Below are positions 9,706 through 59,643 of a stretch of DNA of 64,000 nt, piece by piece. The notes beneath the pieces were generated by a model. The model did no database searches. It worked only from the letters and a program-made list of their open reading frames with translations, and had not been told where the DNA came from. A program made the position numbers and the translations under genes. This DNA comes from Eledone cirrhosa (lineage: Eukaryota): assembly GCA_964016885.1 (NCBI GenBank), contig OZ024743.1, forward strand, positions 257,734,001 through 257,798,000. Direction: 5' to 3'. How positions within the stretch are numbered: position 1 is the stretch's first letter; each line of letters starts with the position of its first letter.

Positions 9706-12180
9706 TCTTTCGCACTTAAATATTCTGACATCACCACAGATGAACTTCACATTATCCTCACCGCACGTAAAACCATCCTAGAGTTCAACAACGCATATTG
9801 GACCAGAGCCGATACCTCTAACAACTTCGACATCACAATGGGAGCATCCGATTCATCCCAATTGACTGATTTAATTGGTATCTTTATTTTGAACTCTTTG
9901 AGTCGGAAAATTCCTCAACTTCGCGGTGGAATTTATCGTGACGATGGACTCTTTACTATCTTAAATTGCAATATAGTTAACCTTAATATTATTAAGAACA
10001 ATATACGTAATCTCTTTAACCAACATAACCTAAAAATTGAATTTGATAACAGTATCAAACTAGCTAATTTCTTGGATGTATCTCTTAATCTTGACACTGG
10101 CCTATATTACCCTTACCATAAAAACAATGAGAACCTAAATTATGTTAACTTTAAATCTAACCATCCTACCAATATCAAGAATGCTATAGTTAGTAATATT
10201 TCTAAAAAGAATATCTAACATATCTTCTAATAAAAACATCTTTGATGCTAACGCCAATTACTATAATAAGGCGCTTTCTAAAGCCGGCTATCCTGATAAA
10301 ATCAAATATAGTAAAGAAACAAATTCTAGAAGATCTTACAGTAGAATAATTACTCATGATCATTCCAATAACTTTAATAAAAGACCTAGATACAAAAACA
10401 TAATCTGGTATAATGCTCCTTTCTCCATCTCTATTAATAACAATATTCCTAAATTATTCTTTAGTGCCTTAAATAAATGCTTCCCTCCCTCACATATCTA
10501 TAGTAAAATATTTAACAAACACACCATCAAATTTTATTATTCTACATCCTCCAATATTTCCAACATTATCTCTAAACACAACAATAAAATACTAAATACT
10601 AAATCTCTTCCTTCCAACACTGAATTTCATAATAACAGTAATAGTACTCCCGACGTCATTGTAAACCCTAGGCTAATTTCTGTAAACCCAAATACAACGT
10701 CAAACACAACTTCGCTAAATGTTCATAATCCAACTCTAAATCAAGAAACTATTATTCCTATCGCAAACAACTTCTCCAATCCAATTCCTTCTATAGATAA
10801 CACTAGGTCACTCATTAATAATCTCTCTAATTGCAACTGCCGTATTAAAAATAAATGTCCTCACAACAACCATTGTCTCGATAAAAACTTAATTTACGAA
10901 TGTAAAGTTATAACTAGCACCAATTCCTTCACCTATTTTGGCTCCACTTCCACCTCTTTTAAAGCTCGTCTCTATAATCATCATTCATCTTTTAAATACA
11001 AACTTAAAAGAACCAACACGGCTCTCTCAGAACTCATATGGTCCTTGAAAGACAAAAACATTAAATATACCCTCTTTTGGAAGAAGGCTTCTTCTGCGTC
11101 TTCATACTTGAACAGCTCTCTATCTAAAATCTGTAATCTCTGCCTAAATGAAAAATTTACCATTATCTCTAATCTAGATTCTATAATAAATAGACGTACA
11201 GATTTGTTTTCTATCTGCTTGCATAAATTCCATAAGACATTTCACAAAGTATACAGCTAATATTCAATTCTTTATCAATTTAGAATCTTTTCTCAAAGGC
11301 ACATATACATACACCTCTTTTAAAATATACCCATCTTCCTAACTTACTTCAAAGGGTATTATACACTCTATAATACTTGTTTACTCATTACCCTCACTCT
11401 ATCTTCACCTTGTAAAATCCTTCGTAACATATACATTTGTTTTGACGCCAAATTATTCATCCTTAATTTATTATTTTTTTCTCCCCATCATCTAACTCAT
11501 TCTTAATACATATTAACTCTTTCTTCGCACATATTATCAATTCTTTCAATATACAAACCTTAACTTCACATTATTTTTCTCAAATCCTTCAATACACAAA
11601 CCTTAATAATTTTTTTTCTCTTCGTTAATTTTCAAATTTCCATAATACTTGTAAACATACACACAATTTTTTTGACGTTAGAATATTCATCCGCAATCCA
11701 TTATTCTTTTCTCTCTATCATCAAACTTTTTAATCTCAATACAGATTAACTCCCTCTCCTTCTTCGTACATATTTTTCCCTTCGTTAATTTTCAATTTCT
11801 TTTAATTTATACATTATCTTCCAACGGTTTTCAACCTCTCTATGTAAAACAATATATCTTTTCTCAGTTATAAAAACTATCTCTTTCTCTCTATCACCCA
11901 TCTCTCCCTCTCCACCTTCACTCTCATCTCCTCCCCTTTTTTTCATCCTTTCCACCCCCCCTCTCTAAATAAAATATTTTTCCCAATATCACACATCAAT
12001 CTAAAATTACTTTTCATATGTTGATTTAAAACTGCACTATCCACAAGTGTTTTTTAGCCTTCATATCATGTCCTCCTGTTTTATCTGATGAAAACACAAA
12101 TATTATTGCATGATGATGTTTGTTTTTGAAATGCGCATAATAAAATACATGGAACTCCTTTAACCATCTTTTGATCTTAT
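9706..12180 (+). mobile_element. 5'-truncated Penelope-like element (RT + GIY-YIG, Naiad-like)
   Basis: ITMGA...IYRDDGL...FLDVSL...SNHP; frameshift ~10205; CNC..KCP...C...IYECKV...YFGST...CNLCLNEK; long 3' UTR ending in an HHR. Confidence 0.85.
12078..12146 (+). ncRNA. Type I HHR at PLE 3' end
   Basis: GTTTTAT-CTGATGA-[long stem II]-GAAA-TGCGCA-TA-ATAAAAT; palindromic ATGCGCAT. Confidence 0.75.
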
Positions 12181-12811
12181 ATATTATATATATACATATA
12201 TATATACATATATATATATATACATAAATATATATATACATATATATACATATATATATATACATAAATATACATATATATATATACATATATATATATA
12301 TATATATATATATATATATATATATATATATATATATATATATATACATATATATATATATATATATATATATATATATATATATATATATATACATATA
12401 TACATATATATACATATATACATATATATACATATATATATACATATATATATATATATATATTCATATATATATATACATATATATATATATATATATA
12501 TATATATATATATATATATGTATATATATATATATGTATATATATATATATATATATATATACATATATATATATATATATATACATATATATATATATA
12601 TATATATATATATATATATATATATACATATATATATCTATATATATATATACATATATATATATATATATATTAGAAAGTGAGGTTTTTTTTTACAAAA
12701 TGAAAAATAACCGAGGTGTCCTACACGAGTGAAAGTATAAAGAAAAAGAGATGAAATCGAAAATGTAACTGGAGTCTTATTTTTTTTAAAAATATATATA
12801 TTTATTTGGTT

Positions 12812-12849
12812 CCTTTACCGGTTTCGCAGTTCTTCTGCTTTTCAAAAGG
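12812..12849 (-). ncRNA. Minimal HHR, U3-A8 variant, in a ~200-bp insert (12673-12882)
   Basis: CCTT-TTGAAAA-GCAG-AAGAA-CTGC-GAAAC-CG-GTA-AAGG on the minus strand. Confidence 0.75.
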
Positions 12850-12996
12850 TGAGTTGAGATGGAGGGTCTGTGGTTTTTCTCATACATACATATATATATA
12901 TACACATATATATATATACATATATATACATATATATATACATATATATACATATATATATATATATATATATATATATATACATATATATACATA

Positions 12997-57148: not shown

Positions 57149-57410
57149 CATCATCATCATCATCATCATCATCATCAGGTTTAGCGTCCGTGTTCCACGC
57201 TTGCATGGGTTTGGACGGGGGTTTTCCCACTTGAGGCAAGAGTGGTTGTCTTGCTCGCATAGGACTGTCTGGCGGGTTTTCTACAGTTGGATGCCCTTCC
57301 TAACACCAACCACATTTACAGTGTGGGGCTGGGAGGTTTTTACCGTGTTGCCTACACGGCCACATTTACAGCGTGGACTGTGTGTTTTTTGTCGTGACAC
57401 CTACACGATC
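57149..57410 (-). mobile_element. RTE 3' UTR fragment with (GAT)n tail
   Basis: Reverse complement of ~22715-22960. Confidence 0.85.
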
Positions 57411-57562
57411 ATATATACATATATGTACATATACATATATGTACATATATGTACATATACATATATATACATATATGTATATATACATATATATACATAT
57501 ATGTACATATACATATATATACATATATGTACATATACATATATATGAAATATATGAAATAT

Positions 57563-59643
57563 AATGCCTAACCAAGGATGTCATATACTCATGCACCGTC
57601 ACGACTAATAACTCTTCAGAAACCTATGTAGGCTCCACTTCTAACTACTTCAAAATCAGATATAATTCGCACATCCACTCGTTCAAAAAGCACAGCCTAG
57701 CCAACTCCACCTCACTTTCTAGCTACATACACTATCTAAAATCTAAAAATAAATCATACACACTCAAATGGAAGTGATAGGCAGCGCGACCTCGTACAAA
57801 CCACCTAATAAATTCTGTAACCTCTGTATACTAGAGACACACAATATTATCTTCTCCAACCGTAACCTACTTAACAAAAAATCTGAGGTGTTTGCAACTT
57901 GCCAGCACCGCCTCAGACATTCCTTCCAAAACTTTAAGCCCAATATATAGCAAGGTCGGACTGGAACCTAACACCACATCTAGCATCAAACACCAGAGAC
58001 ACACCTTATACTACATACCCAACACTAACTGATCCATTATAACAAAAACAACGACATCCCTCTGGAACCCTTCGCAGGGAGAATACCCATTTATACCTCT
58101 ACGGCAGGTGTGACAACATCCACCCACTTGAACGGCACTATGCCGCTCTAAGGGTAATTTGAGCATGAATTGATCGGTTGGATAGTGTTGTGCAGAGGAA
58201 ACACCTTCCTTAGACGGATGTAAAATGATTTAATCGAGTAGCGCTGTTGACCAGTAGGACCGGACTGCTGAGCGCAGTGAGTGAATGCATTGCAACTGCC
58301 GGGCGGGTTGTACGTATATGGATGATCTGACGGTCAGAGAGGGGTCGCGAGGACTGCGGATTGACCTTTGGCGGCCTGACGATGATTATCTTTCGACATC
58401 AAATGTAGCAAGCGATGACCCAGATCTTACCAGAGATCATTGGGTCCTGAAGCAAGCCTGCAATCACCGCGCCTGGTCATATGAGCAGACTACAACCACA
58501 GAGATCATTAATTTAGAATCCTCGCTCATCATCTATAATTTCCATTTGTGGCACCTTAAGATGGGTTAATCCACCATAATAATATGATCACCTTCAGCAT
58601 AACTTAATTAAACTACTCTATAGTTAATACACTTTATGCTTTAAAAATCTCTCTTGGAAGATGCGCATCACCATAGAATTTAGGGTCTATATTGGCACAC
58701 ATTTTAATGGCTAGATATAGAAACCCCAGAGTTACCTCCCCGCATGCATTAACTCCCCTTGCCACACACACACACTTCCGGGCGGTATTCAATGGCGTTT
58801 CTAGAAACGTAACAACCTCCTGTATCGAACTAAAGAACACCAGACTACGATCTCTAACTGGATTGTCGTGGATTATGTGAAGGGCATATAATCGAAAAAT
58901 ACACTCCCCTGACCATGAAAATGCCGAAGTACATGAAATACTCGACATCCCTGCGCTGTGCATCTCCATTACTTATAACACTTTTAACGCTTGCACTATC
59001 TTTAATGCTTATAATATTTCTCCACACACAGACTATATCAATCATATAAAGAATTTGCCACCAGATCTACCAACCTAACACTCTTATTCACCTACCTAAG
59101 TGCCTCTACCACACATATCTCTCTGCCACACTATATAAACAAGACGCACATGCGTGCCACACATAACATTTGCACTATATAACCGCTTATCTTCATGTTG
59201 TATTTTAACCTATATTTTTGATTTTTGATTGTACCTATTAATATAAATGTAATCTCGAAGTGTGTACTGCCACTCTAAATTCTGTAATGAATGTTGACCC
59301 ACAATGTTTGAATATGTATCAATGTTTGAATATGTATTGGTATGTCTCTCGGCTGAAAAGGAGGTCATATAACTGTCCATGCATTAATAAATCGCTCCGA
59401 AGAATCCAAACCTCGGTTTGGAGGAAACAGCTGTAAGCACAATAATGTTTTGAACAGTTCTTTGATTCTTATATTTCATATAACTGCTCTGTAAATCATC
59501 TGATGTTTTTACATTGAGCTACTTAACTTACTGGTAATAAGGTAGTAATACAATACTGCCTACCACTATTTAGGGTGTGTGTAAAATACTTACAACTGCT
59601 TAAGGTCTTGTATTTACATAACCATAAATAGTATAACTAATAC
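57563..59643 (+). mobile_element. 5'-truncated Naiad-like PLE (GIY-YIG end + long 3' region)
   Basis: [12 protein letters not shown]...TYVGST...RYNSH...CNLCILE...TCQH; HHR-like motif at 59394-59438. Confidence 0.75.
59394..59438 (+). ncRNA. HHR with U4-to-C core change
   Basis: GCT-CCGAAGA-A-TCCAAAC-CTCG-GTTTGGA-G-GAAA-CAGCTG-TA-AGC. Confidence 0.65.

Follow-up and report, generated by a model that had tools for sequence, protein, structure and literature searches.

Non-coding hammerhead (HHR) units in one 64,000-nt window of an octopus-like genome are probably non-autonomous passengers of Penelope-like element (PLE) enzymes encoded elsewhere. The units comprise two retrozyme arrays (310-bp and 321-bp units), the F family, the insert H and, probably, the inserts G, U and 54621. 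The link to PLEs is drawn from the head-to-head, uneven-ended architecture common to PLEs and HHR units, and not from the TA-rich niche that both occupy. An autonomous/non-autonomous PLE relationship is likely, as the initial annotation had proposed in the form of an autonomous/parasite system, but the niche to which it appealed is no evidence, since LINEs use TA too. No partner is named because the retrozymes and local PLE termini have no sequence in common and the local PLEs are broken.

The window is a repeat-choked TA-microsatellite sink. Its 41 degenerate (TA)n tracts (1957..60255) total 14.6 kb, or 23% of the window, and their interruptions are strongly polarised, with 883 CA-type against 135 TG-type on the plus strand in the 29 tracts counted. 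Searches by tblastn with PLE-like proteins (156 of the 158 retrieved, after two chimeric ones were dropped), together with endonuclease motifs, identified five coding PLE copies, with coding stretches at 9706-11257 (+), 17995-18741 (-), 23047-24310 (+), 28124-30501 (-) and 57565-57947 (+). Two are Hydra-type, two short-linker type and one Neptune-type, in line with the five remnants of at least three types first annotated. RT followed by a C-terminal GIY-YIG was recognised by Pfam only in the Neptune-type copy (RVT_1, GIY-YIG), and by tblastn and endonuclease motifs in P1, P2, P3 and P5; P2 and P5 retain the C-terminal part alone. P2 is 5'-truncated and the other four have frameshifts or stops.

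P1 (9707..12177, +), a 5'-truncated Hydra-type PLE with the RT end and GIY-YIG and a frameshift near 10205, has the full Hydra-clade motif set: a CxCX5C linker, no CCHH, and CxxC-E..N-CxH with conserved E and N. It carries an intact minimal type I HHR with a palindromic stem III (12077-12147). P5 (57549..59643, +) is a Hydra-type endonuclease remnant with a frameshifted ORF (57565-57947); it retains CxxC and CxH, its linker having been lost by truncation, and its long 3' region bears a U4C-variant HHR (59394-59438). It sits within a 26-bp-period TA/CA tract that continues at both sides. P2, P3 and P4 have CX2-5CxxC linker and CCHH motifs; we tentatively take the long linker of P4 to mark Neptune and the short linker of P2 and P3 to mark Nematis. 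Linker length as a Neptune/Nematis distinction is partly echoed in PMC8557442. In the P2 complex (16828..18893, -), the pLTR with an intact HHR (17789-17745) continues into the start of the truncated ORF (18741-17995), a partial tandem pLTR lies at 17000-16828, and an inverted, head-to-head pLTR arm (18720-18893, +) stops 24-27 nt before the site of the other end. P2 is the only one of the five with a partial tandem or inverted pLTR and a tail (24-27 nt). P3 (23043..24845, +), 68% identical to P2 in the ORF at the nucleotide level, has a frameshift near 23440, a decayed HHR with a broken stem I near 24546 (annotated at 24541) and a pLTR that reaches 24845. P4 (28088..30941, -; RVT_1, GIY-YIG), with a long CX4CxxC linker, is broken near 29106 and 30254 and 5'-truncated at a TA tract. 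The annotated rule that these PLEs end in HHRs thus holds for P1, P2, P5 and, in decayed form, P3. For P4 the link is only possible: a possible 3' region (27043..27996, -) has a decayed U3-A8 HHR at ~27150-27200, but this motif, annotated at 27163, has GCAA in place of GAAA and lies 1 kb past the Neptune ORF, beyond another TA tract.

Hammerheads were searched with our own type I descriptor, written after several sites had been seen and allowing U3-A8 and U4C cores. At a score of at least 10, the 43,165 non-TA bases (arrays collapsed) gave 17 matches against 0.15 expected per shuffle (40 dinucleotide shuffles). Six of the nine HHR sites in the initial annotation were recovered (12077, 17789, 59394 as U4C, 6119/6188, 9063 and 12849 as U3-A8), while 24541, 27163 and ~54757 are decayed motifs seen by eye alone. 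The descriptor also identified HHRs that had been overlooked, in the F family (3 loci), the 321-bp array and unit G at 13327. Rfam at its gathering threshold found nothing in the window, and the best 150 of 733 matches by E-value were all miRNA families, in TA tracts or the 60.2-kb foldback. Several repeat families that bear ribozymes and lie below Rfam thresholds may therefore await annotation in octopus genomes.

The 310-bp array (31037..36827) consists of two inverted, head-to-head arms (31037-33868, minus; 33869-36827, plus) of 9 units, with 18 intact HHRs predicted from sequence. It is a very young retrozyme insertion, with 2 differences between its units in 5270 bp (99.96% identity). The plus arm begins 3 nt before the predicted cleavage site and extends 35 nt beyond the end of the minus arm, and a ~30-bp hairpin lies at the arm junction. 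A 94-bp TA tract (30942-31035) separates the array from Neptune-type P4, confirming the annotated distance of ~100 bp from the PLE 5' end. Faulty long reads or a faulty assembly (through a fold-back chimera, a misjoin or over-polishing) could yield an inverted array of such identity with a hairpin at its junction, and such structures are known to trouble assemblies (PMC8557442). This origin is very unlikely, however: the flanks are not mirror images, TA polarity is equal on both sides, the arms are unequal in length and end position, and the older, diverged P2, F1-F3 and H have the same shape.

The 321-bp array (38386..39633, +) holds 3.9 units with 96-97% identity and an intact HHR in three of four. 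Its unit is 59% identical to the 310 unit and has a similar fold, but its HHR has a U3-A8 core where the 310 core is C3-G8. Both arrays show the tandem arrangement that defines retrozymes, in which units of 150-450 nt follow one another and two or more neighbours each hold a complete type I HHR. GC contents of 0.35 and 0.34 lie below the retrozyme limit of 45-50%, and the longest ATG ORFs (30 and 45 aa) leave the 310 and 321 units non-coding. The units are highly self-paired (folding z -4.4 and -6.4), 14 of 79 pairs in the fold have double-sided changes, and internal (AT)4-6 runs differ in length between copies. By these features 310 and 321 are non-LTR retrozymes, their self-cleavage and circRNA formation being predictions; in Xenopus, 8 of 9 predicted dimers failed to cleave (10.64898/2026.07.22.740005). 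Neither unit shares sequence with the local pLTRs (nhmmer best E 0.11; blastn matches of 11-17 nt only), which bears out the earlier warning that lying close together is not enough to name a partner.

The F family is present at three loci as head-to-head insertions of a circularly permuted, non-coding HHR unit with a tandem period of 524 nt: F1 (3450..4492), with two HHRs 524 nt apart on its minus arm and one on its plus arm; F2 (13682..14545), whose plus arm spans a single complete unit between two short sites; and F3 (55737..56176). Identity is 78-90% between loci and 97-99% within them. The longest ORF is 21 aa, and tblastn found no coding remnant in the family. The consecutive HHRs of the F1 minus arm have the retrozyme tandem arrangement. 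The F circle has an MFE of -97.5 against -91.7 +/- 6.9 for shuffles, and neither the F nor the G circle is more stably folded than its shuffles (z about -0.8). For this reason we class F with the non-autonomous HHR units and not with the canonical retrozymes, which are strongly self-paired.

The other inserts are smaller or single. H (5917..6343) is a head-to-head pair of short HHR termini (HHRs 6119-6081 and 6188-6226) with a left arm longer by ~47 nt. U (12674..12880, -) has an intact U3-A8 HHR (12849-12812) that resembles the 27163 HHR, at an overall identity of 53%. G (12999..13658, +) is a 620-nt non-coding unit with a 40-bp terminal direct repeat and an HHR (13327-13406) with a 5-bp stem III. 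Insert 54621 (54621..54905, +) has a near-intact HHR at ~54757 with a long stem II and one stem III mismatch. Inserts are present at all four positions annotated as orphan HHRs (5925, 8853, 12673 and 54620), but the one at 8853 is a PLE terminus and no orphan family. It forms part of a chimera (8856..9313, -) in which a P2-family pLTR (9128-8856, 95% identical) meets, at a 2-nt overlap, a G-type unit (84%) represented by its 5' half.

H, U, G, 54621 and F might all be truncated solo or inverted pLTRs of PLE families with coding parts outside the window, leaving only 310 and 321 as retrozymes. We consider this plausible but the less probable reading. The 8856 insert is of this kind, F and G have no stable circular folding, and inverted single HHR pairs 100-700 bp apart in Schistosoma are read as truncated PLEs in PMC4209133. 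F, however, is a circularly permuted 524-nt unit with two same-strand HHRs, ORFs of at most 21 aa and no trace of coding sequence in tblastn, and G is one unit plus its 40-bp terminal repeat. For H, U and 54621, the truncated-pLTR and passenger explanations are compatible.

The architecture of the insertions points to PLE enzymes. Head-to-head copies with two outward 3' termini make up 6 of 15 PLE/HHR insertions (P2, the 310 array, H, F1, F2 and F3) and none of 16 LINE, SINE and DNA-element pieces (Fisher p=0.007). The sole inverted LINE (14834-16168) has an internal inversion and lacks two outward 3' termini. End lengths are unequal in all six, by 35 nt in the 310 array, 24-27 nt in P2, ~47 nt in H and ~120 nt in F. 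The PLE signature, as given in PMC8557442 and PMC3846280, is an inverted pLTR with a 30-40-bp tail at one end; this range fits the 310 tail only, and a 25-50-nt offset on a 310-nt circle has a 17% chance. The three F insertions have six ends that abut TA, and every one of them coincides with one of two sites (chance ~0.004, AT-run-corrected). The 321 array ends at the 310 short site (3') and the 310 long site (5'), two coincidences with a chance of 0.06-0.16 after allowing for AT-run sites. In P2, a coding PLE, and in 310, H and F, the long end falls 157-180 nt beyond the cleavage site; single-ended units stop at scattered distances (38, 142, 208, 258 and 265 nt). Short ends match the target over 4-12 nt of AT sequence, and the 310 plus arm end has no such microhomology.

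Insertion of the retrozyme arrays by LINE machinery (twin priming, internal AT runs), or DNA-level satellite amplification, would make the PLE likeness incidental. LINEs are abundant and TA-flanked (18.4 kb of the window), one has a 5' inversion, AT microhomology occurs at the short ends, and a 2026 preprint prefers local tandem amplification after PLE insertion (10.64898/2026.07.22.740005). Nevertheless, this account is unlikely, as the paired outward termini are confined to PLE/HHR insertions, the units lack a LINE-like simple-repeat tail, the 310 plus arm ends without microhomology, and the near-identity of its 9-unit arms fits one multimeric or circular template.

Under the passenger explanation, a PLE GIY-YIG endonuclease would nick AT-rich DNA. 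RT, in many cases helped by a few AT nucleotides that match the target, would initiate downstream of the HHR at either of two fixed internal positions and copy a template that is multimeric or circular. If the opposite strand were then primed as well, the result would be a head-to-head insert with one long and one short end. In Frangieh et al. 2024 (PMC11167929), the PLE tail is explained by two internal RT start sites, and Poseidon PAc has an AT-rich target, both start sites downstream of the HHR, and uncleaved RNA usable as template; here, 7 of 8 arms start at least 36 nt upstream of the cleavage site. In contrast to the short-end microhomology, PAc priming is described there as free of homology. 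The best-conserved stretch between 310 and 321 (78-83% in 40-nt windows) is located at and downstream of the two end sites and not at the HHR. Canonical multimeric animal retrozymes may carry a PLE integration footprint (head-to-head arms, two fixed RT start sites 35 nt apart, a TA target), with the conserved ~70-nt end-site segment, not the ribozyme, as the cis signal for the PLE RNP; we hold this idea tentatively, at somewhat short of even odds. We found no prior report of such a retrozyme-borne footprint in the literature searched. If true, it would be evidence at the level of mechanism that PLE enzymes insert retrozymes, going further than co-occurrence or pLTR homology, and the partner family could then be sought by a genome-wide test.

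Long degenerate (TA)n tracts are split repeatedly by PLEs, non-coding HHR units and LINEs. Degenerate (TA)n lies within 10 bp of 32/32 PLE/HHR ends in the window, and perfect (TA)4 within 10 bp of 31/32 against 7% of random non-TA positions, counts that come from one window and are partly circular because many ends were placed at the TA start. By the degenerate definition, 21/24 LINE ends (p=0.07) and 25/32 ends of all other TEs (p=0.011) adjoin TA; four of the seven TA-less ends come from a pair of SINEs that lie beyond the TA-dense zone. The strict definition widens the gap (20/32 for other TEs, p=0.001). A modest PLE excess at TA is possible, and the annotated niche common to PLEs and HHR units exists, but it cannot tell one mobiliser from another as the insertion architecture can.

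One control LINE (40103..41858, +; RVT_1) lies inside a TA tract, with a 98-bp block containing 11 interruptions present on both sides, and another (42856..46906, -; APE and RT domains) has TA at both sides. PLE P5 is likewise flanked by a matching 63-bp microsatellite block. Flank interruptions have the same strand polarity, not mirrored, in 6/6 head-to-head insertions, one F2 flank having a single interruption. The matching blocks and unmirrored flanks indicate that elements of any class split pre-existing tracts, and the proposal that insertions regenerate the target is not supported as a PLE property. Later tract growth would proceed by slippage and block duplication, independently of the splitting element. 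It is improbable that PLEs together with HHR units make up a closed autonomous/parasite system that regenerates its own TA niche. The complete TA-adjacency, the strict-definition excess and the variable AT runs of 310 and 321 would suit such a system, but LINE ends adjoin TA and a LINE splits a tract as a PLE does, flank polarity is unmirrored, and rare 16-mers are, overall, not shared more often between neighbouring tracts than between tracts far apart (p=0.11). The niche claim also adds little, since both the PLE TA bias and the PLE-retrozyme link are already published and LINEs confound it. In PMC8557442, Hydra elements show (TA)n insertion in almost all families, and PMC13282606 gives 31 recently active PLE families and 47 active LINE families in O. 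vulgaris.

The elements described here are new members of a known system. Metazoan non-LTR retrozymes (PMC7229834; 10.64898/2026.07.22.740005) resemble 310 and 321 in their tandem ~300-nt, low-GC, non-coding, well-folding units, type I HHR with palindromic stem III and co-occurrence with PLEs, which are proposed as their mobilisers or origin. Unlike them, the 310 array is head-to-head with a 35-nt uneven end within (TA)n, and the two related monomers have different HHR cores; unlike the Xenopus report (Li, Clavereau & Pollet 2026, 10.64898/2026.07.22.740005), there is no homology with local pLTRs. The words 'tail' and 'orientation' are absent from that preprint, which covers no mollusc. The inserting enzyme of animal retrozymes has so far been inferred from co-occurrence and pLTR similarity; the young 310 array with its tail and the two-site F ends at three loci make the question testable.

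EN+ PLEs of the Hydra, Neptune and Nematis types (Craig et al. 2021, PMC8557442) share with our copies the C-terminal GIY-YIG, linker Zn-finger motifs, HHR in the pLTR, partial tandem and inverted pLTR with a tail at one end, and (TA)n bias. Here, by contrast, 5/5 copies are truncated or frameshifted, and tails of 24-47 nt (~120 nt in F) are not strictly 30-40. The minimal PLE hammerheads of Cervera & de la Pena 2014 (PMC4209133) likewise have a short helix I, long helix II, tiny palindromic helix III, covariant U3-A8 core and opposite-strand pairs 100-700 bp apart, and the P5 HHR matches the known U4C variant (Perreault 2011, PMC3088659). Two features set the window apart from minimal PLE hammerheads: stem II in F, G and 54621 carries an insert of unusual length (~50-70 nt), and U3-A8 occurs here in a tandem retrozyme, the 321 array.

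The window is almost wholly repetitive. Its 41 degenerate (TA)n tracts occupy 14.6 kb (23%), and annotated coverage includes 12.2 kb of Penelope-like element (PLE) remnants, 11.4 kb of non-coding hammerhead ribozyme (HHR) units and 18.4 kb of LINE pieces. The initial annotation placed PLEs and HHR units in a shared TA-microsatellite niche, which proved real but not clearly specific. Under a strict definition, 31 of 32 PLE/HHR ends lie within 10 bp of a perfect (TA)4, against 7% of random non-TA positions, and 20 of 32 ends of other transposable elements (TEs) lie at TA (p = 0.001). 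When degenerate tracts are allowed, these partly circular counts (a truncated 5′ end is recognised by the onset of TA) become 21 of 24 for LINE ends (p = 0.07) and 25 of 32 for all other TEs (p = 0.011); two SINEs beyond the TA-dense zone account for four of the seven misses. The counts omit a LINE-like ORF at 391–954, whose ends are undefined and away from TA, an omission that favours LINE adjacency. They also omit two unclassified segments: a 720-bp TA-flanked one with a 58-bp internal direct repeat and neither HHR nor coding match (4785–5506), and an HHR-free foldback element with TA/CA at its core (60147–60389). The niche does not tell one mobiliser from another.

The longer LINE copies are identified by Pfam RVT_1 and APE matches, the fragments by DNA similarity. 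The labels RTE, CR1, SINE and mariner are in part provisional, mariner alone having a DDE match. One LINE copy (14834–16168) carries a twin-priming-type internal inversion and is 95–96% identical to 40103–41858. Another LINE, with C-terminal C2H2 zinc fingers (48706–52442 and 53440–54294), ends 3′ in (CA)n, not TA, and has its 5′ region interrupted by a 1-kb TA tract. A further family (19412–22962) is marked by a (GAT)n tail and a PHD finger encoded within its RT ORF; of its seven pieces across the window, six have a TA tract at the 3′ end or close to it.

Searches with tblastn, using 156 of 158 fetched homologs, confirmed five coding PLE remnants, P1 to P5. A Pfam scan of P1 to P4 failed to detect the first three, which were therefore recognised from their homologs and motifs. 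P2 (16828–18893) and P3 (23043–24845) are 68% identical in nucleotides, and both have a short CX4CxxC linker and CCHH. P4 (28088–30941) has a long linker, by which it is probably Neptune-type. Among named relatives, those nearest to the Neptune-type RT are octopus proteins, with 67–71% identity over partial matches, which points to an octopus-like host. Motif inspection of P1 showed a CxCX5C linker, no CCHH, and CxxC and CxH near the C-terminus; the C-terminal CxxC and CxH motifs are also kept in P5. P1 (9.7–12.2 kb) and P5 (57.5–59.6 kb) fit the Hydra definition of Craig et al. 2021 (PMC8557442), where (TA)n is the insertion target of almost all Hydra families. Between its RT and endonuclease, P1 has an N/S/T-rich insert (10600–10820) reminiscent of the asparagine-rich inserts described for Adineta Penelopes (PMC3846280). 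Frameshifts or stops interrupt P1, P3, P4 and P5, and P2 is 5′-truncated; none is therefore able to mobilise anything now.

At its gathering threshold, Rfam found no HHR in the window. The best 150 of its 733 E-value matches were all to miRNA families, located either within TA tracts or at the 60.2-kb foldback, and are thus uninformative. A custom type I HHR descriptor, composed after some sites had been viewed, gave 17 matches scoring at least 10 in 43,165 bases, compared to 0.15 in each shuffle; a weak match at 62420 (score 8.5) was discarded as chance. The descriptor recovered six of the nine HHR sites first annotated, the others (24541, 27163 and 54620) being damaged though recognisable. 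That inventory had missed the F family (3450–4492, 13682–14545 and 55737–56176), the HHRs of the 321 retrozyme array (38386–39633) and unit G (12999–13658). A U3–A8 core, a known natural covariant (PMC4209133), occurs in the motif at 12849 and in those of the 321 array. The motif at 59394 carries U4C, described as a natural low-activity variant (PMC3088659). Stem II begins with GCA in all U3–A8 hammerheads of the window (12812–12849, 27150–27200, 38503–39510), which are possibly one lineage joining the 321 retrozyme HHR to the termini of the HHR insert U (12674–12880) and at 27163.

The head-to-head 310 retrozyme array (31037–36827) contains 18 intact HHRs, with two differences in 5270 bp. Its unit is 59% identical to that of 321, and both fold far better than shuffles (z = −4.4 for 310, −6.4 for 321). 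Their common fold has double-sided changes in 14 of 79 pairs, from effectively two independent sequences. No opposite-polarity ribozymes were found in either array with the type I descriptor. Both units match non-LTR retrozymes as these have been described (PMC7229834). F and G fold no better than shuffles and look more like units derived from PLE terminal repeats (pLTRs). A proposed search for motifs common to 310/321 and pLTRs returned nothing significant among the pLTRs of the window, and thus points to no partner.

Rough dating at 0.0036/My, a rate cited in PMC13282606, places the 310 array at ~0.1 My, F and the HHR insert H (5917–6343) at 1.4–4.3 My, 321 at ~5 My and P2 at 6–12 My; gene conversion or polishing would lower these ages. 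No datable PLE in the window is contemporary with the 310 array. As PMC13282606 reports 31 recently active PLE families in O. vulgaris, this absence need not count against a PLE mobiliser. It also reports 47 active LINE families, and a LINE mobiliser for 310 is possible.

The discriminating signal is insertion architecture, not niche. A typical PLE insertion is described as carrying an inverted 5′-truncated copy, which leaves two outward 3′ termini, and a 30–40-bp tail at one end (PMC8557442, PMC3846280); in vitro, this traces to a pair of internal start sites used by the RT when the target is AT-rich (PMC11167929). None of 16 pieces of other TEs shows this double-3′ form, compared with 6 of 15 PLE/HHR insertions (P2, H, the three F loci and 310; p = 0.007). 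In each of the six, a long end is paired with a short one, at an offset of 35 nt in 310, 24–27 nt in P2, ~47 nt in H and ~120 nt in F. The offset in 310 would by itself arise by chance in 17% of cases. F, a non-coding unit of 524 nt, is circularly permuted, and the six TA-abutting ends of its three insertions use two sites only (chance ~0.004 after allowing for AT-run sites). In 310, the plus arm starts 3 nt ahead of the cleavage site and the minus arm beside a hairpin. The 321 array ends 3′ at the 310 short site and starts at the 310 long site, coincidences with a corrected chance of 0.06–0.16. Between 310 and 321, conservation is best (78–83%) in a stretch that covers and follows these two end sites; the HHR modules differ. 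Long ends lie 157–180 nt beyond the cleavage site in coding P2, 310, H and F. Weighing against a PLE footprint, only one tail falls inside the published range, and single-ended units stop at 38–265 nt. Except in P2, short ends share 4–12 nt of AT microhomology, which could favour those sites for any RT. Where the 310 plus arm halts at its long site, 1.56 kb of TA follows (36828–38385) and 321 then begins at the corresponding position, as though the register had been kept.

The insert at 8853, initially annotated as an orphan HHR unit, is instead P2 pLTR (95% identical, which rules out a separate non-coding family) joined to one half of a G-type HHR unit (8856–9313). Either a PLE RT switched templates between PLE RNA and G RNA, against which stand the opposite polarities of the flanks, or a deletion joined two insertions, which fits too.

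Publications already describe the (TA)n bias of PLEs, the hammerheads of their pLTRs and PLEs as mobilisers of retrozymes, and a 2026 preprint argues that vertebrate retrozymes derive from PLE pLTRs (10.64898/2026.07.22.740005); its text from Methods to Discussion mentions neither tails nor orientation. Our literature search, which covered neither the PMC7229834 supplement, Lunse et al. 2017 nor bioRxiv supplements, found no account of a cephalopod retrozyme or of a retrozyme-array tail signature, and neither appears in the available text of PMC11722881. The first two sources may bear on earlier notice of inverted or tailed arrays. The initial annotation was largely right in observation and half right in interpretation. 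The HHR units and PLEs are new members of the known PLE–retrozyme system, within a general TA-microsatellite sink. The part worth following is the PLE-type insertion footprint on retrozymes.

Insertions had also been proposed to regenerate their target. Polarity is the same, rather than mirrored, on the two sides of each of the six head-to-head insertions (one flank of F2, the insertion at 13682–14545, holds a single interruption), which rules out TA tracts as tails written by the elements. Tract splitting multiplies tracts for any TE, and no PLE-specific pattern is seen. The LINE at 40103 and P5 each lie between flanks that share a block (98 bp and 63 bp, respectively), which may be a long target duplication or a repeat that predated the insertion and was split by it. 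Neighbouring tracts do not resemble each other significantly more than distant ones do (all tracts, p = 0.11), and adjacent-tract ancestry, clear in two cases only, was rejected as a general rule. Tract interruptions are polarised on the + strand, with 883 CA-type and 135 TG-type between 1957 and 60255; possible sources are a founder tract enlarged through block duplication, local inversions, or a strand bias in mutation. TG-type interruptions form a block at ~3310–6612 and 9314–9507, and a mariner-like DDE transposase fragment (6614–7159) has tracts of opposite polarity on either side. Two non-adjacent long tracts, 24852–27041 and 36828–38384, have 30 rare 16-mers and a 91-bp block in common, which suggests that the Neptune-type copy and the 310 array divided what was once a single tract.
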